A DNA stretch of 28,166 nt from positions 128,001 through 156,166 of IMG/VR virus record IMGVR_UViG_3300033075_000957; one strand, written 5' to 3'. Below, in pieces: positions 3,540-28,166 of this stretch; the stretch's first letter is position 1, and the number at the start of each line of letters is the position of its first letter. Below the pieces are notes generated by a model, which saw only the letters and a program-made list of their open reading frames with translations, did not search any database and was not told the DNA's origin. The stretch is from a virus. Taxonomy: Duplodnaviria; Heunggongvirae; Uroviricota; Caudoviricetes. The translations under genes were made by a program, and so were the position numbers.

Positions 3540-5407
3540 AATTTATTCCAAGATTCGCAATAACATGCAACTAAAATAATTTTTAATTCTTCATTAGTCA
3601 GTTTGCTTATACCCGAATTTTCTGAATATTGTTTAAATAATTCTGCGAAAGACAAAGAAATAGACGGTACGAAAGAGTCGAGGCACGCAGCAATAGTTTC
3701 ATCATCCGCGTCTATTAGTTCGGGATTTACGGTTGGATACAGTAGACATTTAGCATCAAAAATTTCTTTCTTTTGTTCATTAGTTAATTGCCGAGCGTCT
3801 TTAACACCAAAAGATTCCATGAGGGTAGACTGAACTAATTTATCGACGCGATCATAGATTTTACTAGCCTGAACTATATTTACAGTATTCGCCCTAACCA
3901 CTCTAGGAGTCTTATCACGAGAACCAACGGGCCTACCTCCTGATTTACCACTCTGCTTTTCTTTCGCCATATTTTCGGATTGTATTTTTTTGATCTCATG
4001 CTTTTGTTGCATTAGCAACAGTGGATTATGGAACGGGCTTGCCTTTTGCGGCATTTCCTCCTTAGTACGAAGTGCCTCGTCCTCATCAATGCGAGCACGC
4101 TCTACAGAAGAATCTTCTTTAAGCAGTTCACGCATACGATCGTCCGATAATATATTACGATCTACTAAATCACGAATAATATTCCAATAAATCTTTTCAT
4201 CAAAAAGATTACTATTATTAAAGGTTACAGTTGGATTATTTCTAAAACCTGTCGCTTTACGGATGATAGTAAATTCGGAATCTAACCATTTCGCAATAGC
4301 AATTCTACAATTGATTATGCGAGAAATAAAATCTTTTAAGCCAATCGGTTTGCCGTTTTCTGCACTTCCATCTTTGTAAAGCTGAATACCTAAACCAAAT
4401 AATATTGGTTCAATACGTTCTTCAAATGCAGCAATTTTATCAATCGGAGGAAAGAATTCTTGATAATCAATCGCACTATCCCAAATGATTTCTCTCTTTC
4501 CTCCGTTTGTATTAGCCTGTGTGATACCCGCTAATTTTTGACCTAATACCGGAGAGGGCATTAGTTGATTTTTATGATCGCCAAGCCGCCAAAGTGCAGT
4601 CGGGCACGAGGCTCCGTCTAACATTGTTATCTTTGCAGTCTTAACCTTTTGATTATATAATAAATCATCAAATATTGAATAAAGCGTAGGTACGGCCCAA
4701 ATTGAAGTGTCATCTTTTTTACAGTATGCTACATAAACATCATTTTCAGGAAGTGGAATAAAAGTTGGATTTCCGTTACCAGTCTTATTTTCAATAGCGT
4801 CCCTAACTTCTTTAGGGTAGGTGGAATAGACCTGTTTTTCAATTTCAGTCGTTGGTGTCCGTTTGTGACCGTTGCTGGTGGACGGTATCTTAATTCCATA
4901 GCGTAATTTTTCAGCCATGGTACCATAAAAATCACCAATAAGCTCTATATTTCCGGGATTGTAGAAGAAATATCGAATAGGAATCTTGTTACCTCGAAAT
5001 TTACCATATTTACGCTGTAAAACAACGTTATTAGATTTTAAATACCACCGTGCAAATTGCTCAACTCGGTCAAAAATATCAGCACGCTTTGACCAAGAAT
5101 CGTAAAAGATCTGTGTACTATCTTCTGTAGCGTGGATAGATAAACCATCAATGGCTAAATCTACCTGTAAATCAACAATTGATCTAACTACACCATTACG
5201 CTTATAGAAAGCGTCGGCCATAAGCATGATTTTTTGCTGGTCTTGCTGGGTACGACAGTCCGGAATAATTTCAGCAGGACGAAAAGCCTCATAGGATTCA
5301 CGACCACCCTGCGAACGAACATACGTATTAGAGGTGCTGTCGTAAAAATTTGCAGCAGCCGCATTCTGATATGTCTCTTGGGGTTTTGAAATATCCTTTT
5401 TCATCAT
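3536..5407 (-). CDS. Portal protein
   Basis: 623 aa, between TerL and the protease. Portal-like segments include FYKRNGVVRSIVDL, KKDDTSIWAVPTLYSIFDDL and LVDRNILS. Confidence 0.85.
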   Translation of the reverse strand: MMKKDISKPQETYQNAAAANFYDSTSNTYVRSQGGRESYEAFRPAEIIPDCRTQQDQQKIMLMADAFYKRNGVVRSIVDLQVDLAIDGLSIHATEDSTQIFYDSWSKRADIFDRVEQFARWYLKSNNVVLQRKYGKFRGNKIPIRYFFYNPGNIELIGDFYGTMAEKLRYGIKIPSTSNGHKRTPTTEIEKQVYSTYPKEVRDAIENKTGNGNPTFIPLPENDVYVAYCKKDDTSIWAVPTLYSIFDDLLYNQKVKTAKITMLDGASCPTALWRLGDHKNQLMPSPVLGQKLAGITQANTNGGKREIIWDSAIDYQEFFPPIDKIAAFEERIEPILFGLGIQLYKDGSAENGKPIGLKDFISRIINCRIAIAKWLDSEFTIIRKATGFRNNPTVTFNNSNLFDEKIYWNIIRDLVDRNILSDDRMRELLKEDSSVERARIDEDEALRTKEEMPQKASPFHNPLLLMQQKHEIKKIQSENMAKEKQSGKSGGRPVGSRDKTPRVVRANTVNIVQASKIYDRVDKLVQSTLMESFGVKDARQLTNEQKKEIFDAKCLLYPTVNPELIDADDETIAACLDSFVPSISLSFAELFKQYSENSGISKLTNEELKIILVACYCESWNKL

Positions 5408-17612: not shown

Positions 17613-18794
17613 TCCTCTAGTACTCTATATACACGAAATCGCTAACGCAAAATGGAACGGTACGCAAGTTTCATTCATTATTGAAAATTCAGAAACTTCA
17701 ATAAAAATCTCACAAAGACCAAACGTGGTCGTCTACCTCGTCTATAATTTGTGGTCGAAAGGTTTTCACATTCAGCGTGTGACGGGGACCAGTACCTCGA
17801 TAACAAAGTGTATAAAAATGGCCGTGGAAATCCCATAACGTATATTGGGAAAGTCTGGAAATACTAGAAACGACGCGGTATTTAGGCCACCGGTAAGGAT
17901 TTTGACATAGCGGGGATTTCACATCACATTCTATTCGGGGCCATTTCTCCTTTCTGCCTCGGTTAGATAACGGATGCCTTCCTACGGGTTTCCTTACTCT
18001 CACACGCGTTATACGGATTTCTGGCTTTACAGGGCCTACGTATAGAGTAATACATAAGAATACAGTGTGTTTCACACTCAGTATTAGCCTTGTATATACT
18101 CTGTATTGTTGATCTCTGGAAAGGGCGTCGGTCTAAACTTATAAAATTCTAGCCTTATTGTGGACTGGACATTAAGGCTGCGTCGGGAAGTGGGAGGCAG
18201 AAATGCTTCCCATTTTCATTTAACGGCCCGCTACGGCGATTTGGGCCATGGAACGGTACACGAAGTGGTCAGTGATGCGTTTCGCCTCTAATACCCTTTA
18301 AACGCCTTTTACGCGGATTGATCATTTCTTGATCTCCCGTCCGATTCCAGAATGTAAAGTTTAAACTTTAAAAGTTGTTGAATGCACCGGCATCCCCTAT
18401 TCTAGTGCCAGTGAGGGTTTTGGCTCAAAAGGCCCCGCGATTTTTCATCCTGCTCTTTCGTACCGTCGATCGATTTCAAACTGATTAAAATAAGCAGATA
18501 ATCTAAACCCATAGGTTAAAAAGATTAACATACTCTAATCATCAATTGCAACAAACAACAAGGAGAAGGATAAGGACAAGGGCGAGGTTTTCTAAAAAGG
18601 GGGCGTGGGTAAAATGTGGATGCCACCGCCGCCACTCCCTGCTTTCAATACCTTCTGAAAGTTTTGCAATAACCCTCCCCCACCCCTATAGGGGATCAAT
18701 TGTTGAATTCTTTATTTTTTTATATGTTTAAACTTCTAACCTTGCAAACCCGATACAACTGGGTACACTTGTGCGGGGCGTGTAACCCCTTGGA

Positions 18795-18823: not shown

Positions 18824-18841
18824 ATGCTAACTTTTACCGAT

Positions 18842-19855
18842 ATGCTCGCCCTTGCCCCTCGCACCCAAACGGCACCCGAACATCGGGACGACGATACCAA
18901 ACAACACCCTAATACCGCCGGTTCTCGCTATCTCCAGAGAATAGCGGAGGGCATGGACCCGAACAGTGCCCTAATCATGGCACGTAATGAGGGGGAGAGG
19001 AAAGCCAAACGGATACTTAACGAACGCCCCGATACCCTCAATAGGGGATATAAGGCCGCGAATTACGATCAATTCGTGGCCGATGTTGGTGGCATGTTAG
19101 TGGAGCGTATACTTTCCGCCCCCAATGACGATGCCAGAAAACTGATAACCATATCCTCTTGTGTGGGAAGGGTAGATCGGCAATACAATAAGGCTACCCG
19201 GTATTGGGTATGTTTGTACTTTGTTAGGCTCAACTACGTGTTGGCCCCCCACAATGGGGATAGTACCCCGATTGTGGTGCCGTTCGATTCGGATTGGGTT
19301 AGGGTAACTAAGAAACAGTACAAACTTGCCCGCAAACATGCTACCCACCAATTGGAGGGGCATCCGTGGATTGAAACGTACGAATACCGTACAACGCCCC
19401 GACGCCTAACAGAATCCGATCACGACGAGTCCACGGGGTACCATAAAGGGGACAATAGGGTATGGTATGCAATCAATACCCTGTCGGATGCCGAACGCAC
19501 CGCTCTGCACTTGTACGGTATGGGTGTGCGTTCCCCGATTATTGGACAAGCGGTGTTTGGGAAGCGTAAGGGTGCAGCGGCTGCGGCCCGTATTCTTGTG
19601 GCCCGAACACTTGCCAAACTCGCGTCCACTCTCGGGCAACTTGACAGCAACCCTAACATCGCCCGATACCGTGATTGTTCGGAAGCCGTTAGGGCCTACT
19701 ACGGTGGAACCCGCTTCGCTGACCGCCCCGAACGGGCACCGAACGAGCCGAAGAAACTTGACCCGAACGACCGCCGAACGACTCGTTCGGATTGGACTAG
19801 GGAATCTACCCGCAGGAGGCTGCGGGCCAACATTGGAAAGGCGGCAACCATCTAA
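18842..19855 (+). CDS. Protein with C-terminal sigma-4/LuxR-like HTH (paralog A)
   Basis: AINTLSDAERTALHLYGMG...IGQAVFG...ARTLAKL. The start was moved from 18824 because that ATG abuts the -10 element. Confidence 0.65.
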   Translation: MLALAPRTQTAPEHRDDDTKQHPNTAGSRYLQRIAEGMDPNSALIMARNEGERKAKRILNERPDTLNRGYKAANYDQFVADVGGMLVERILSAPNDDARKLITISSCVGRVDRQYNKATRYWVCLYFVRLNYVLAPHNGDSTPIVVPFDSDWVRVTKKQYKLARKHATHQLEGHPWIETYEYRTTPRRLTESDHDESTGYHKGDNRVWYAINTLSDAERTALHLYGMGVRSPIIGQAVFGKRKGAAAAARILVARTLAKLASTLGQLDSNPNIARYRDCSEAVRAYYGGTRFADRPERAPNEPKKLDPNDRRTTRSDWTRESTRRRLRANIGKAATI

Positions 19856-20498: not shown

Positions 20499-20726
20499 AG
20501 TCAACCGGTCAATAATCACCACTCACTTGTTCAGGGGAACCTGAGCGGATGGGATTAGACGGTACACAAAGGTAAAACATGTGCATGTTTCCTGTACCGT
20601 TCATCTTTGCGGCGAATGCCGATGACGAAAGTCGTCGGTGGGGTTTACGCTAGCGTGTGCTAGTGTTACTGAATGGGCTGAGTGCTCAGCCCGAGTTTTC
20701 TTGCCACTGAGTGGCAGGAGGTTGGT

Positions 20727-22163
20727 ATGCAGAACGCTCTTGATCGTCTCTTCTCTCACATCGCCAACAGCGAAGTCGCCGGGATGATCTCCCGACTGAT
20801 GTCGCTCGCTGGCTGCCCCGAGGGTGGTCGCGGGGTCCAGTTCGTGTGTGGTGTGAAGCACTACATGGGGCTGCCTGAGCAGTATTACAAGGGGTGGCTG
20901 CGTGGTAACGCGATGTACACGGTGACGCGTGGACTCGTGTACCGCAACATGAAGGATGGCCACTTTGGGAAGTGGGAGGTGCCGCCCCACATCCTGAAGC
21001 AGCACGCGGCGGAGATGCGGGCACAGGCCCGCCGAAAGATGCTGGCCTTCAAGACCCGATACGATGATCTTGACAAGGCCGACATGGTGGCACTCGTCTT
21101 CGAGATGTCTGTGGACGAAGACACCTCAGACGGCGAGGGCATGAGCATCATGGCCGAACTGGAAGAGATGACCCGCACCGAACTGATTCGGCGGGCTCGT
21201 GAACTGACAGACGATCGTGGGCAGAACATGCTGAACTGCGAATTCGCCGAATCGGTGGTGAATTCCTACGTCTTGCAGGTGCTCGACTACTGTCGTCAAG
21301 ACGAGGTGTGGTCTTCATCGGATGCGGAGTACCGTCTGACCCACCGCAAGCCCCGACTGCGGGGAATGAAAGCGATCGCTGAGGCGGTATTCAAGGCCGA
21401 CTTCGCCCGCCGCAGTGTGGCACACTTCGATCCGCTCAGCCCATCGGCACCCCGTATCGGATTCGCTACGCGTGGCACGAACAACGCCGAGTACTACGTC
21501 ACCATCGAGGGTGTGTCTCGTCGGGTGCCGTATGGCGAATACAAGAAGACGCAAGCGGCCTTGCATCTGATGCGGTGCCAAGGGCTGCACAATCCTCCGG
21601 TGGCCGCTTTCGTCACCGAACCCACACCACGCACATGGGGAGACACGCTTAGTGATCACCCCAACTACAACGAACCGGCGAGGGTGTTCGAACTGCTTGA
21701 AGTGGCAAACCTGAGCCCTCGCGAGAAGGAGGTGTTCGGCATGTCCTGTCGTGGCTACAGCAAGAAGCAGATCGCCGAAACGCTCGGCATCAGCCAGAAC
21801 ACTGTCGGACCTCTCGTGAGTCGTGCCACGGAGAAGATGAAGTCCGCCGATGTTCGCAAGGCATTCGAGCACGGACCCGGCAAGCTGGACTTGGAGATCG
21901 ATCGCGGTACCCCAACCGAACGCGTTCGCCCGATGATGACAGATCATCAGACGCGTGGGCTGTCGCGGACCTTCCTTCCTCCCGCACACCCAACCATCCA
22001 CTACATCGAAGCCGGACCTTGCTCGGCGAGCGAATCACCGGCGGCGATGGCTGCAATCGAACACGCGAAGGTGCTGGCCGCACGCAAGGCGGAGGAAGCC
22101 GAACGTGCCAAGGAACGAATTCGCAACATCAAGACCTTCGTGAGTCTTGACAGGGCCGGTTGA
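20727..22163 (+). CDS. Large protein with sigma-70 region 4/LuxR HTH (paralog B)
   Basis: LSPREKEVFGMSCRGYSKKQIAETLGISQNTVGPLVSRATEKM, AGGAGG SD before ATG 20727, and GC3-rich codons. Confidence 0.8.
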   Translation: MQNALDRLFSHIANSEVAGMISRLMSLAGCPEGGRGVQFVCGVKHYMGLPEQYYKGWLRGNAMYTVTRGLVYRNMKDGHFGKWEVPPHILKQHAAEMRAQARRKMLAFKTRYDDLDKADMVALVFEMSVDEDTSDGEGMSIMAELEEMTRTELIRRARELTDDRGQNMLNCEFAESVVNSYVLQVLDYCRQDEVWSSSDAEYRLTHRKPRLRGMKAIAEAVFKADFARRSVAHFDPLSPSAPRIGFATRGTNNAEYYVTIEGVSRRVPYGEYKKTQAALHLMRCQGLHNPPVAAFVTEPTPRTWGDTLSDHPNYNEPARVFELLEVANLSPREKEVFGMSCRGYSKKQIAETLGISQNTVGPLVSRATEKMKSADVRKAFEHGPGKLDLEIDRGTPTERVRPMMTDHQTRGLSRTFLPPAHPTIHYIEAGPCSASESPAAMAAIEHAKVLAARKAEEAERAKERIRNIKTFVSLDRAG

Positions 22164-22677: not shown

Positions 22678-23237
22678 CGACTAATCCCAACGTCGGGCCA
22701 CTAGGAATAGTGGTCCGAACGTTTCAACGGTACAGAAAGCCATCCCTCCATCAAGGTAGCCCCTTAGTATCGCCGATCGCATACTAGGGCACGGTCGCCG
22801 GTGGGTATGGTAGAATGGTGATATAACTCTTCTGTATCGTGTGGCTTGGGAATCGCCACGAACCCAATAAAGGGGTAATATGGACCAGCATCACTGGTAT
22901 GGCATGCTGCCACTTCTATGCGAACTACCGGGGTTCGTCTATAGACAGCACAGTAGCGGGATTCCGCCCGTATACCCTAACAAATACCAAACGCAAGGTT
23001 CGGGTTTTGTTCCAACCACTTATACCTATGTGGAGAAACGCCACTAGCCACTATGATAGGGGATTATAAAAAACAACTTGCGGTGTAACCGATTCGCTTG
23101 CGGGTAGGGGAGTGTATACGTCGGGTGCCAACTGGCACCAACCCACCCCGCAACCGCTACCAGTTGTAACGGGTTTCTTGCGTGGTGTTTGTTTTTAGTT
23201 TGTGGTTTTATACCACAGAAAGGATTGTGTTACTTTT

Positions 23238-23651: not shown

Positions 23652-23906
23652 CTAACCGGGGGATAGGTAATATCTTCCGTCCCCCGTGTTAGGAATGATG
23701 CGGGGTTTCTTTTTACCTGCGGTACGCTATAAACGCATGCCGCAGGTTTTGCCCTAGTTGCAGGCTCCGTTCCTTAGCGAATAACAGAACCTATAGAAGT
23801 ATAGGTCATACGTCTATCGCCCCAAAAATAGCGGATACCAACCGGGCGTTCCCTGTGTCTATAATAGGACACTGGGAAATTTGTCAATCTTTCAGAAAGG
23901 ATCGTC

Positions 23907-24077
23907 ATGAACGAGAACAGTCGTCAGCGTTCGCGTGATTATCGCCGTGCTCATGCGAGCAAGTTCAAGCAGATCGGCGATGGTGTTTTCGGTGGATACA
24001 AGAGTGGCGTAATGAATGGTCCCGAACCATCGACGGATCGGGGTCGGCGGCGTGCCGCTAAGAAAAAGACTGGTTAA
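23907..24077 (+). CDS. 56-aa Arg/Lys-rich peptide (MNENSRQRSRDYRRAH...RGRRRAAKKKTG)
   Basis: Below the ORF-track cutoff. GAAAGGA SD and codon usage like its neighbours. Confidence 0.65.
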   Translation: MNENSRQRSRDYRRAHASKFKQIGDGVFGGYKSGVMNGPEPSTDRGRRRAAKKKTG

Positions 24078-24375
24078 CACTAACCAGTGGCGATAGGCCA
24101 TTCCTATTATCTCATACCTATGGTGGTCGGGTTGAGATTATGGCACCACTAGGTGGCTACAGCCTGCGATTCCGTAACCAATCGGAGCGATGAAAAGTGT
24201 GGCGGTGATCCTCAGCCCAATGAGGTAGAATAGACGCCGATATATTCGTAACATTTCTCGGCAAGCGTAGTCTACTACGACTAGAGTGTGGAGCGTCATG
24301 AACAGGCCCGATGGTCTGTGACAGTAGCGGGCGATACCCGAGGAAGGAAACCTGAATGGTTTTTTTTGTTGCCCG

Positions 24376-24564
24376 AACGATACGGGGGAAGTATAGTCTA
24401 GATGTTCCCGGATATCCGGGTTTAGAAAAACATCTGGAAACTATGGACGAATCGCCATAGCAATATTGTGGTAGTCAGGACCGAATTGAGTGCTGGCCTA
24501 AACTCTGTAACCACAGAGGGTCATGTGCAATTCACTGGAATCCATCTATTACTTCCGTATCGTT
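24376..24564 (+). ncRNA. Unknown structured RNA, copy 1
   Basis: Closing stem AACGATACGG/CCGTATCGTT. Core AATATTGTGGTAG (24462-24474) and GAATCCATCT (24538-24547) are shared with copy 2. Confidence 0.65.
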
Positions 24565-24579
24565 ATTGCCGCAGGCAAC

Positions 24580-24651
24580 GGGCGATTAGCTCAGCGATAG
24601 AGCAAGGTGCTCATAATACTTAGGTCGTTGGTTTGAATCCAACATCGCCCA
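24580..24651 (+). tRNA. tRNA with CAT anticodon (Ile2 or elongator Met), no encoded CCA
   Basis: Acceptor GGGCGAT/ATCGCCC+A, D-arm GCTC/GAGC, anticodon loop CTCATAA, T-arm GTTGG-TTTGAAT-CCAAC. Confidence 0.88.
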
Positions 24652-24665
24652 TTAGGGAGAATGTC

Positions 24666-24878
24666 ATGTTTCAAGTTGGCGATCGTGTGCAGGCGAACAT
24701 TTCTGTGCTTCAAACGGATAACTCCATCCGGGTTTACGAGAATCGGACGGGCAAAGTGGTTTCAACTTTGCCGCCGCCTTTGGTAATGGTTCAACTCGAT
24801 GTACCTATTGATAGTGGTACTGAATACGAGATGAGAACGGTGTATACCCGTGTAGAGAATTGCTCAATTTGCCTCTAA
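24666..24878 (+). CDS. Small SH3/KOW-like beta-barrel protein, paralog 1
   Basis: FQVGDRV...TGKVV...VMVQLD; GGGAG SD; clear paralog at 27228. Confidence 0.8.
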   Translation: MFQVGDRVQANISVLQTDNSIRVYENRTGKVVSTLPPPLVMVQLDVPIDSGTEYEMRTVYTRVENCSICL

Positions 24879-24900
24879 ATCGCCCCTAAAACACTAGGAA

Positions 24901-24931
24901 TTGTCCACAATTGTGGATAACTTGTGGAAAA
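24901..24931. promoter_or_regulatory. DnaA-box cluster 1
   Basis: TTGTCCACA (24901-24909), TGTGGATAA (24912-24920, perfect) and TGTGGAAAA (24923-24931). Confidence 0.7.
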
Positions 24932-25282
24932 CCACCCTTAATTGGGGTGTGCTTAATATATGGGACACATATTCCCATCCCAGCATATATCCAACCATCC
25001 CTTCCCTATCCCCCTTTCTCTTCTGTCTTCTGTATGTAATGAGGGTACTTTTGGTATAAAACCTCATTATTTCGCTAAAAACGAGGTTTTAGAGCAATCT
25101 GCTCCCTCATTGATCCCCTGTCTAGGGAATCAATTAAACTGTCTGATTGAATATTATCAATCAAGAAAACAGCGAACACCACCCACAATTAAATACGTCC
25201 ACAGATATGCGGTATGACTGTAAAGGCCAATTCCGCAATTGGAGTGCAGATAGGGTCCGATAACAAACGTAAATCACTAATT

Positions 25283-25567
25283 ATGGAAACCCCCATGTCT
25301 CAATCACCATTCATTGCCGTGCATACTTCTCCTGTTGTTTCATTAAAAAGTGTCACCGGTTCGGATAATATACCCGGATGGTATAAGGACACAACCACGA
25401 ACCATCTTTGGCTCGTTAATGCGTCTGGTCTTTTGATAGGGTTTATCAGTTCTCATGACGGAAGATTTTTCTATCACACCCATGAGACAGATTTATTTTC
25501 CCGTCTTTCACGAATTTCTGATGGGACAAAAATTGAACTGATTCAACCCTCGTCCAAGGATACATAA
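25283..25567 (+). CDS. Hypothetical protein
   Basis: Open frame heading a run of small ORFs. The start is uncertain (25214, 25283 or 25295). Confidence 0.6.
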   Translation: METPMSQSPFIAVHTSPVVSLKSVTGSDNIPGWYKDTTTNHLWLVNASGLLIGFISSHDGRFFYHTHETDLFSRLSRISDGTKIELIQPSSKDT

Positions 25568-25628
25568 TGGATAAGCCAATGCCGAACGTATTGGGCCAAT
25601 TAGTCCGACCACCCATTTAGGGGATTAT

Positions 25629-25790
25629 ATGTACGCTCTCCAACGTTTTGACGGATTAACTTGGGGCCGTTTCACCAAAGATGAGGCGTATCGTTTAGCC
25701 AATCTCTACCGTCGTTGTGGAGCAAGCGATGTGCCGGTCAAAATCCAAAACCACTGGGTTTCTCAACCAAATGGTAGTTGGACCACATGA
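25629..25790 (+). CDS. 53-aa hypothetical protein (MYALQRFDGLTWGRF...)
   Basis: AGGGG SD; tiles between neighbouring ORFs; not in the ORF track. Confidence 0.55.
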   Translation: MYALQRFDGLTWGRFTKDEAYRLANLYRRCGASDVPVKIQNHWVSQPNGSWTT

Positions 25791-25800
25791 GGGTCCGATA

Positions 25801-25998
25801 ATGTCTAAAGAAGAAATCGCTGCGTCTATTCATCAGATGATGCAACAAGATGCTGAAACAGTAGTCAAAGCTATAGCCGATTCCTGTCGTCTAATTGCTC
25901 GGGCTTGTAACGAAGAATTAGACGGTACTTCCGAGCAATTTTGGGGTGAAGTCGCTCAAAAAATTGACGAGGTACATAAATATATGGAAGAACACTAA
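25801..25998 (+). CDS. Small helical hypothetical protein (MSKEEIAASIH...)
   Basis: GAGGG SD before ATG 25801. Confidence 0.65.
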   Translation: MSKEEIAASIHQMMQQDAETVVKAIADSCRLIARACNEELDGTSEQFWGEVAQKIDEVHKYMEEH

Positions 25999-26770
25999 GC
26001 GGACAGAAATGTCCGCAATCAAACTAAATCAGTGTGAAGCAAGAGAATAGGCCCCTCTTGCCAGATCCGAGCTATACTTCGTACACTGTTTGTCTGTGCT
26101 GGGTTACACCGGCATGGACAATTTAGCTCCGCAAGTCGGAGATAGGGACACTGGCAGTTCGTCTAGCAAAGACCCGAAATTAAAACTTTTAAGACGCGAA
26201 TGATTCCCGTAAGGGATTATAGGTTAGCACATACTAGATCGCCCGCAAGGGCGAGAGTGCTGTCTGATTACAGATAGAAGTATCTGTTGTCGGATTCCTC
26301 GGCTATAGCCGAGCTTTCGAAGTATGCAAAGGTAATGAGGGTCTAGCCCCTCAACGCCGTATAGACCGTAAGGTGAGGGCGTTTAGGTATAAGCCGAAAG
26401 GCCAGAGTAATACCACCTTTCATACTTCATCTGTCGTGGCGATAACTTCAAGACGATAGGTTTAAGGAGTTGTTGGTTTCAGAGAGTATATGTTCATAAC
26501 CAACCTCTGCACACGAGGATACTCGCATAACCGTGTGTATATTATTAGCGAGTTGCGATTACGGATAGTCTGGTCTTAATAATTTGCAAATTAAGGCTGG
26601 CATACACCAAAAACACTGTCGTATCCGTAGTCTAAGTTTTAAAATACTGCACAAACAGGTGGTGCTGTTGTGGAGTATGGACAGTTACCTAGATGGTTTA
26701 GACATAGGCCATCGAGGGTTCCATCGTTGTTCTCCCCTTGCCTACGCGATAATTTCAACTAGGCAAGGTT
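25999..26770 (+). ncRNA. Large structured non-coding RNA candidate
   Basis: Continuous helices with GNRA loops (GCGGACA-GAAA-TGTCCGC, TCCC-GTAA-GGGA, TCGCCC-GCAA-GGGCGA, ACC-GTAA-GGT, GCC-GAAA-GGC), a multibranch domain, and no credible ORF. Confidence 0.65.
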
Positions 26771-26935
26771 TGACGGTACAGAAGAGTGATAGGGCATAAA
26801 GGATACTACCAATCGATAGAGTATCTAGTCGTGCCAAAAGATAATATTGTGGTAGGTGCCGGACTAGCATCGATTCTCCCTAGGTAAGATTTCGAGCTAG
26901 CGAAGCGAACCCATCTTTACTTTTCTGTATCGTTA
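26771..26935 (+). ncRNA. Unknown structured RNA, copy 2
   Basis: 19-bp closing stem 26771-26789/26917-26935 with four G-U pairs. Core AATATTGTGGTAG (26843-26855) and GAACCCATCT (26907-26916). Confidence 0.65.
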
Positions 26936-27227
26936 TAAATGAAACAATGATAGGTCCACGTATCACCCTCCATTAATGGCACGTTTGTGTCTTGGGATAT
27001 CCCTGTTGGATCGGTGAGAATGGATAGTCCGACAATAATAAAGGACAATCTGACAATGCTCTAGACATTAATATGGAGCAGCAAAGTCAGACACTAAATC
27101 AGGTACTCTGACGCTTTGCGAAATTAACTAGTCCCAAAGCGTTGGAAATCCTGCTATCGTTTTTTGATAAAACGCTGGTTTTGTTCGGCCTTGTGACCGA
27201 GGCCCTTAACGATATAAGGGGACGAAT

Positions 27228-27455
27228 ATGTCATTCAAAATTGGCGAGCGTGTTTCCGCCGATATCTCTGTAGCACAACCTACTGGTCCTAATCGTATCT
27301 ATTACAATAAAACAGGGAAGATCATCGAGGTTCGGGATAATTCGTTGGTGCAGATACGTTTTGATGAACCAATCGATGCGGGAACAGAGCGTGAAATAAG
27401 AACTGTTTATGCGAAGGCAAGGAATTGCGTTTACTGTTTGAAGGGAGAAGCCTGA
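27228..27455 (+). CDS. Small SH3/KOW-like beta-barrel protein, paralog 2
   Basis: 33 of 69 ungapped identities to 24666..24878 (hand count); AAGGGG SD. Confidence 0.82.
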   Translation: MSFKIGERVSADISVAQPTGPNRIYYNKTGKIIEVRDNSLVQIRFDEPIDAGTEREIRTVYAKARNCVYCLKGEA

Positions 27456-27456
27456 T

Positions 27457-27519
27457 AAGCAGTTTATTTCGGCAAAATTATACACTAAAATACTTTTAGT
27501 TCGAATCCAGCATCGCTCA
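27457..27519 (+). pseudogene. Decayed tRNA / tRNA 3' remnant
   Basis: 27499-27521 matches the 3' end of the intact tRNA (24631-24653) at 20 of 23 nt, while the 5' half no longer pairs. Confidence 0.55.
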
Positions 27520-27899
27520 TTGAAGAGAGAAAGAGATCGCCACATGGTCCCTTATGAAAAGATAGGCGTGACGGAGGAAGAGTACATTAGGCTGACTCTT
27601 CTGTACCGTTCAGGGCGTTATTCCTTTCCTCTTGGGGGATAGGATGCGTGAATAGTCTACAATGACTACAATGGGTCTAGGTCGAACGCTGTTTTTAACG
27701 AAATAATGACCACGCTGTTAGGGGATAAAATGGTCAATCCCCTATTCTAATAGTGCTTTCAAAAAAGCCTATTTTTACAGCACCAAATGAACTTCTGACC
27801 CCCCTCCGGATCAACAAAAAGTATACAAGAAGACTAGTGTATCCAGATTTGATCACTTTTCACACTTCCCACCCTCTATAACCATGACAGAGAGGTAAG

Positions 27900-27983
27900 T
27901 TATCCACATTCCTTTTTCGAGGAAAAGTGGCGTTTTTAGCGTAAAAAGGGCGTTTTTGGGGATTTATTCACATATTATCCACA
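27900..27983 (+). promoter_or_regulatory. DnaA-box cluster 2
   Basis: TTATCCACA (27900-27908), TTATTCACA (27964-27972) and TTATCCACA (27975-27983). Confidence 0.7.
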
Positions 27984-28166
27984 TTTTCGTCAAATATTTA
28001 AGACAATATTCAACCAACCAGTTGAACATCCCTCCCCACTCCCTCCCCTCCCTCCCCTTCTCCTTACTCTTATAGATATAGAATGCTTATTATTACGCTA
28101 ATAATGAGGTTTTTCACTGTTTTTGGCCCTTTCACCGCGTGGTGAAATAGATATATCAATTCAGAT

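Follow-up and report, generated by a model that had tools for sequence, protein, structure and literature searches.

What are two intergenic elements with an identical 13-nt core doing in the early-type region of a phage genome? The window considered here is the whole 28,166-nt stretch analysed, the last 28 kb (128001-156166) of a 156,166-bp IMG/VR phage record (IMGVR_UViG_3300033075_000957; Caudoviricetes) that is rated 99% complete; coordinates are those of the window unless marked as genome positions. Element A (~190 nt, 24376-24566, + strand) was recognized from its sequence and fold, and element B (~165 nt, 26771-26936, + strand) from its sequence, its fold and an orthologue in a related phage. 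Both are genuine elements that are subject to selection and resemble no curated RNA family. Our tentative explanation, to which we give somewhat less than an even chance, is that they form an orphan pair of processed + strand phage noncoding RNAs (ncRNAs), in which an invariant junction serves as a binding site and release makes use of the long stem and, in A, of the neighbouring tRNA. Transcription, processing and a binding partner are what we infer for this pair from sequence and fold.

The common layout described in the original prediction, which had been made from the letters alone, is borne out when the two sequences are read side by side. The closing stem of A joins 24377-24394 to 24548-24564 and encloses two 5' hairpins, the core 13-mer AATATTGTGGTAG (24462-24474) and the 10-mer GAATCCATCT (24538-24547). 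That of B joins 26771-26789 to 26917-26935 and encloses a nested 5' hairpin, the same 13-mer without a mismatch (26843-26855) and the 10-mer GAACCCATCT (26907-26916). All these parts are read on the + strand. The closing stem (18-21 bp) ends in (T)ATAG in both elements, and GAAYCCATCT comes after the 13-mer at a distance of 63 nt in A and 51 nt in B. The pattern AATATTGTGGTAG N40-70 GAAYCCATCT has two matches in the window and none in any of 100 dinucleotide shuffles, so the shared core is not a product of chance. The helices claimed for the periphery, TCTAGATGTT/AACATCTGGA in A and GGCAT/GTGCC plus GGATACT/AGTATCT in B, do appear in the minimum-energy folds but do not occupy equivalent positions, as A carries two hairpins side by side and B a single nested one. 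Outside the core the interiors have no significant sequence likeness (global alignment z 0.9), MAFFT failed to align A with B, and a model built from B alone finds A weakly (15.1 bits, E 0.02).

Both elements are predicted to fold stably, at -70.4 kcal/mol for A (z -5.5) and -55.0 kcal/mol for B (z -4.6), and each remains a separate domain when folded in context (581 nt for A, 961 nt for B). The GUGG/CCAU pairing proposed for the core is part of the minimum-energy solution in A, but B prefers a shifted register, and forcing the pairing there costs 1.8 kcal/mol. Support for the closing stem comes from the comparison of its 21 pairs in A and B, of which four are changed on both sides and five on one side; 95% of cells are paired, and sliding the 3' partners lowers this value to 38-48%. 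When compared by means of mononucleotide shuffles, the + strand folds better than the - strand by about 8-11 kcal/mol in A, in B and in three other intergenic elements bounded by the same stem motif (see below), and the arm mismatches of such elements are G.U pairs on the + strand. Taken with the substitutions seen in the related phage, strand folding and stem covariation favour a role as + strand RNA over a role in DNA only.

A and B sit in a diverged duplication of a ~3-kb cassette. Besides the RNA element, each copy contains DnaA boxes, the gene for a small SH3-like CxxC protein, and either a tRNA or what is left of one; the genes flanking A and B run in the same direction. In the first copy, a tRNA-Met gene (CAU anticodon; 24580-24651, + strand; ARAGORN, Rfam tRNA 61.6 bits) starts 16 nt past the closing stem of A, an arrangement that makes co-transcription of the two probable. 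Next after A and the tRNA comes paralogue 1 of the SH3-like small protein with a C-terminal CxxC (24666-24878, + strand). Paralogue 2 (27228-27455, + strand) begins 292 nt downstream of B and shares 48% identity with paralogue 1 (E 5e-25). As the proteins have diverged to 48% identity and the interiors of A and B can no longer be aligned, the duplication must be old; the survival of an exact 13-mer and a 9/10 match, in the same order, despite that divergence indicates that the core is under selection and is not part of a decaying duplicate.

Conservation in a related phage, which had been named as a test of the idea, was found for B. A profile of the two small proteins led to L175, a 2305-nt contig from Logan run SRR32548944, in which an orthologue of B (641-807; 196 bits) differs by two substitutions, both compatible with the structure: a G-to-A change at 26788 turns a closing-stem G.U into A-U, and an A-to-C change at 26808 falls in a hairpin loop. 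Identity to the window is 97% over 26498-26934 and 90% over the small-protein gene, whose product is 88% identical to paralogue 2. Across 26498-26940, four substitutions fall at predicted pairs (A-U to G.U, G.U to A-U twice, and C-G to U.G) and 4/4 keep the pairing, a count biased toward kept pairs, since only one of the compared sequences served for the structure prediction. The remaining substitutions lie in loops, and all four indels of the aligned structured region are unpaired. In the predicted structure, the direction of these changes fits the + strand only.

Beyond the 3' arm of B the two phages part. A 198-nt insertion directly follows the arm in L175 and the distance from B to the next gene is ~475 nt there, compared with 292 nt in the window, so that B behaves as a discrete module and not as a leader held at a fixed distance. 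Where L175 has an intact tRNA-Met (1755-1828) and an extra open reading frame (ORF), the window holds a 3' remnant of a tRNA-Met gene, comprising the T arm and the 3' strand of the acceptor (27494-27520, + strand). The remnant lies ~560 nt downstream of B, and the intact gene of L175 lies 950 nt downstream of its own B. L175 is thus mosaic relative to the window. Comparison with it shows two losses in the phage, of an 80-aa ORF and of the 5' portion of the tRNA-Met (window 27494-27554; L175 1500-1829).

On sequence evidence, A, B and the copy of B in L175 are at present the only known members of the family. The Rfam check that the original prediction called for was run, and no family matched A or B, whether at gathering thresholds or at E values up to 10; the tRNA-Met alone was matched. 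No specific support was gained for any of the classes that had been suggested (ribozyme, 6S-like RNA, protein decoy or antitoxin-like RNA). Scans for the exact core returned 58 loci in IMG/VR, about the number expected by chance and all coding sequence or true tRNAs, 5 loci in JGI metagenomes, none with the A/B architecture, and 2 loci in GTDB genomes, which is the chance level. The 3' arm pattern had no match in IMG/VR. No A/B-like elements occur in three terminase relatives (38-48% identity; two near-complete), no similar RNA occurs in L174 and L176, the contigs of two other small-protein homologues, and a search for an orthologue of A found none.

Several known kinds of element were considered and set aside. 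The strings UUGUGGUAG and GAAYCCAUC resemble those of tRNA D- and T-loops, and real tRNAs match the pattern, with UUGUGGUAG and GAAUCCAUC found in them; a tRNA-like domain in A or B is opposed by the failure to draw a D or T stem by eye and by the empty ARAGORN result. A T-box has no Rfam match, B contains no AUG, and the partner that a first antiterminator helix would need is not kept between A and B (by eye). Readings of the core as a kink-turn, a loop E or a tetraloop receptor do not fit in register (by eye). Across the genome, no RVT_1 match (reverse transcriptase) that would indicate a retron and no RtcB that would indicate linked RNA repair were found. The cyanobacterial repeat HIP1, considered as a clue to the host, shows no clear enrichment (3 copies versus 0.8 expected).

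The closing stem has a wider distribution than the core. In both A and B it consists of two inverted copies of a genome-wide 14-nt motif, A-ACGRTAC-RGAARRG as derived from aligned copies, with AACGRTACRGAARRG as its sequence form. Its central part, ACGRTAC, is found at 63 places on the + strand and at 53 on the - strand (~17 expected per strand; 116 versus ~35 in total), and copies with a good extension number 67 versus ~2 expected in the genome. The window alone holds 12 matches to the motif versus 0.19 expected, and ACGGTACAG is the most over-represented 9-mer of the genome. Window copies lie, for example, at 3664, 8488, 10376, 16089, 18453, 20559, 22727, 26773 and 27596. The motif is not present in the three terminase relatives. 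Pairs with facing, hairpin-capable arms within 250 nt of each other are more frequent than expected (15 versus 4.9), and among good copies all nine pairs within that distance face each other, with none in other arrangements. All seven intergenic pairs, A and B among them, map to the early region (genome 145-156 kb and 0-7 kb). The 13-mer core is common to A and B only (2/7 elements); the other interiors are unrelated, and arm-to-arm spacing among motif-bounded elements ranges from 42 to 214. Stems reach 13+4 bp in A, 19-21 bp in B and 27 bp in the element at genome 2050-2225, so that as modelled they would have the near-continuous duplex length (~20 bp or more) of RNase III-type substrates. 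The core alone is particular to A and B, and the stem probably has a function in common with the other motif-bounded elements.

These observations can be assembled into a provisional mechanism. A and B would descend from an old duplication of a single structured noncoding RNA module, transcribed from the + strand in the early region, and each is predicted to fold as a separate domain whose 5' and 3' ends are joined by the 18-21 bp stem. This stem would stack on a second arm that starts with GUGG/CCAU, with hairpins branching off its 5' side. Longer early transcripts probably yield the RNAs by cuts in or beside the long stem, whose length is close to that of an RNase III substrate, and in the case of A a cut by RNase P would be added at the tRNA-Met 16 nt downstream. 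The invariant junction, AAUAUU-GUGG-UAG ... GAAY-CCAU-CU, would be the functional site, where a protein or another RNA most likely binds.

Some of the evidence weighs against such processed RNAs. The original picture of a conserved core with a variable periphery stands insofar as the core is exact and the elements are non-random, but it was overstated: the main helix is a genome-wide motif, which weakens the notion of a core plus a covarying periphery, and the GUGG/CCAU helix is invariant and so gains no support from covariation. The covariation that exists is thin, drawn from two paralogues and one near-identical orthologue, and the bias of the pair-preservation test has been noted above. Without their closing stems, the interiors are predicted to fold only modestly better than shuffled sequences (in A, z -3.9 for one half and -1.4 for the other; in B, -1.7 and -0.75). 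About 51 of the good motif copies are found within long ORFs, in either orientation, and most copies have no complementary partner within 400 nt; the main role of the motif is probably at the DNA level, and the stem could be a by-product of two adjacent binding sites. The cassette also contains other short conserved islands, for example 28 nt at 86% identity, together with several DnaA boxes, and island-like conservation fits regulatory DNA too. On this account A and B would be duplicated regulatory DNA, with the arms as two inverted sites bound by any factor that reads the genome-wide motif, the 13-mer and the 10-mer as further sites for proteins, linked for instance to the nearby DnaA-box clusters or to sigma-4/LuxR-type helix-turn-helix (HTH) proteins of the phage, and with an incidental RNA fold. 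The mostly single, genic copies of the motif and their even density agree with it, as do the 42-nt element at 20559-20600, a nested palindrome of operator-like form, and a weak DnaA-box-like TGTGG that overlaps the core (6/9 positions, by eye). We consider it unlikely, though a rival to be taken seriously, as the + strand folds better by 8-11 kcal/mol in five intergenic elements, the L175 changes keep pairs through G.U, which is workable on one strand only, an arm spacing of 42 to 214 bp is ill-suited to a dimeric DNA binder, and no fixed distance separates the core from any downstream start. Rather unlikely, too, is a purely cis-acting role, in which A and B are intercistronic structures, comparable to the early RNase III sites of T7, that process or stabilize early polycistronic mRNAs and have no function as free RNAs; the core would then belong to the processing signal. 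The early location of 7/7 intergenic motif-bounded elements, most of which end within 0-100 nt of the gene or tRNA that follows, speaks for such a role; stems of 18-27 bp in A, B and the element at genome 2050-2225 and a run of U after the element at genome 6170-6328 are consistent with it. A simple processing hairpin, however, needs neither a branched interior of 120-150 nt nor an invariant 13-mer found in only two of the seven elements, and the next gene begins as far as 292 nt (window) or ~475 nt (L175) beyond B.

A role as additional ligands of Ro60, with the closing stem bound by the protein and the variable interior tethering other factors, is suggested by the genome itself, which encodes a Ro60/Rsr orthologue outside the window (genome 30753-32363, + strand; L064 6754-8364) with TROVE (E 5.6e-35) and Ro60 vWA (E 1.7e-45) domains. 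Y RNAs measure ~100-200 nt, have a stem that closes 5' to 3' ends, and occur as paralogues that share the stem and differ inside (PMC4201824), a description that A and B match in size, end-joining stem and differing interiors. However, Ro60 binds Y RNAs at a GNCGAAN0-1G motif near the 5' end (PMC4201824), which a regular-expression scan did not find in A or B, and the YrlA (RF02553) and Y_RNA (RF00019) families of Rfam have no match at E up to 10 in 23800-28166. The Y RNAs known from bacteria and phages are encoded no more than 4 kb from the Ro60 gene and on its strand (PMC4201824, PMC12135203), but A (genome 152377) and B (genome 154773) are at least ~35 kb from it, even if the record is taken as circular. 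A canonical-looking array already stands beside the gene: the 620-nt intergenic region upstream holds four GNCGAAN0-1G motifs within ~420 nt, in hairpin loops that read UGGGYCGAAGA, with T-arm-like and D-arm-like strings in the order of YrlA, and a genome-wide YrlA search gave weak matches on both sides of the gene (16.9 and 13.1 bits, below threshold), one further weak match at genome 48148-48202 and none at A or B. By its sequence, this array is the likelier partner set, and a Ro60 role for A and B is very improbable. Least probable of all is that they are copies of a non-autonomous element resembling a miniature inverted-repeat transposable element (MITE), or functionless duplicates in decay. 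Their ends are inverted repeats of a dispersed motif, and the 198-nt insertion of L175 begins right after the 3' arm of B amid mosaic flanks; yet none of the 11 motif-bounded elements examined has a target-site duplication, interiors other than those of A and B are unrelated, and single copies of the motif lie in frame within long genes. Neutral decay sits badly with an exact 13-mer that has survived where neighbouring proteins are down to 48% identity. A broader proposal, itself improbable, is that A and B, together with the five or more other motif-bounded elements of the early region, constitute one ncRNA family whose stem strands are complementary to the ~60 single motif copies that phage mRNAs carry in one orientation or the other. 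The arms would act in trans once opened or cut, or a shared protein would recognize both partners, and the A/B core would be an extra effector module; if so, the elements would define a phage RNA regulon addressed by a 14-nt tag.

Comparison with known systems places the proposed pair of processed RNAs in context. The stable RNAs of phage T4, species 1 and 2 (rnaC and rnaD), are ~140 nt long, belong to a tRNA cluster and are freed by tRNA-processing enzymes. Like A, which has a tRNA-Met 16 nt downstream, they are small structured phage RNAs beside a tRNA, but they have no sequence or Rfam relation to A or B, B here does not adjoin an intact tRNA, and both A and B differ in the long end-joining stem made from a genome-wide motif. 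The Y RNAs (YrlA, RF02553; Yrl1 and Yrl2 of Thermus phage phiLo) are similar in size, stem, paralogy and the presence of a Ro60 gene in the genome, while A and B lack the GNCGAA motif, a T/D-arm domain, an Rfam match and proximity to that gene. The early RNase III hairpins of T7 and the stems that flank rRNA are, like the closing stems here, long duplexes with related sequences at several sites, and by analogy with the rRNA-flanking stems the A/B stem would bracket an excised RNA. T7 sites, however, are simple hairpins of ~60 nt, whereas the interiors here are branched and span 42-214 nt, and here the stem sequence also occurs as ~50 single copies inside genes. With 6S RNA, A and B share their length and a long closing stem; 6S RNA has no Rfam match here, and its central bubble is open on both strands, whereas in A and B the 3' strand runs from CCAU straight into the closing stem with no unpaired stretch at the junction, which leaves no two-sided bubble. 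The motif itself, 12-14 nt long and present about once per 1.4-2.3 kb, recalls other dispersed oriented motifs, namely DNA uptake sequences and uptake signal sequences (DUS/USS) and the stoperators of mycobacteriophages. Like the motif, uptake sequences are both genic and intergenic, lie on both strands and form intergenic hairpins where inverted copies pair. Neither uptake sequences nor stoperators are related to the motif in sequence, stoperators are orientation-specific and intergenic, and an origin as an uptake sequence would require the motif in the host genome.

Few structured ncRNAs of phages have known roles, and some of them act in host takeover or counter-defence. The present phage combines three RNA-related features: a pair of elements with an invariant core, a genome-wide motif that also builds their stems, and a Ro60 gene with a Y-RNA-like array. 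Should A and B prove to be stable RNAs, they would represent a new family and offer a handle on the role of the motif; otherwise, what remains is duplicated regulatory DNA. By sequence comparison, the phage is related only distantly to sequenced phages, as its large terminase has 24% identity to that of the closest phage in GenBank, and no IMG/VR contig exceeds 48%. Its genome has a guanine-cytosine content of 39.5%. In the window, the - strand genes include the large terminase, virion genes and a GDP-mannose dehydratase, and an early-type region of small + strand ORFs extends from ~17.4 kb onward.

Within this early region, other motif-bounded elements on the + strand are an intergenic element at 18253-18466 (genome 146253-146466), a 42-nt hairpin at 20559-20600, which lies 82 nt upstream of a sigma-4/LuxR-type HTH gene (Pfam), and a 114-nt element at 22727-22840, in which the + strand fold is 7.6 kcal/mol better than that of the - strand. 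A motif-bounded element precedes each of the early genes 18824-19855 and 20682-22163, and the latter encodes a GerE/sigma-70 region 4 HTH (E 2.6e-10); the products of both genes are candidates for a factor that reads the motif. A single - strand copy of the closing-stem motif, ACGGTACAGAAGAG, lies at 27596-27609 and is kept in L175; when extended by one base (27595-27609), it forms a perfect complement of the 5' arm of B. Motif density is even across the blocks of + and - strand genes, with a limited set of reading frames inside genes, and the favoured frames encode peptides such as TVQK, NGTE and SSVP.

Further features of the duplicated cassette concern its proteins and its 3' ends. Paralogue 1 of the SH3-like protein matches no Pfam family; a word-based search with the small protein found nothing, and a profile search among 1.8 billion cluster representatives found only three small homologues. 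DnaA-box-like sequences (TTATCCACA and variants) cluster 3' of each cassette copy, at 24909-24931 and 27897-27986, and may mark a replication origin or a regulatory region. The segment 26000-26960, which contains few ORFs, is highly structured on the + strand (-329 kcal/mol, z -7.4; - strand z -4.4), with several hairpins capped by GNRA loops at 26200-26420. Upstream of 26498, the sequence of L175 is replaced by an unrelated one, and with its upstream part swapped in this way the region appears modular.

Outside the window, the likely Y-RNA-like array lies to either side of the Ro60 gene and shares its strand, at genome ~29330-29920 (L064 5330-5920) and 32549-32696, and includes an odd 84-nt 'tRNA-Glu' upstream of the gene and an 86-nt 'tRNA-Asn' downstream. 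The Ro60 gene is followed by one for a metallophosphoesterase and then by NAD-salvage genes (NAMPT and a cytidylyltransferase-like gene). The commonest 13- and 14-mers of the genome stem from a repeat array built on CCAAGACCCAGACC, which occurs in nine exact copies at genome 23464-23663 (- strand reading).

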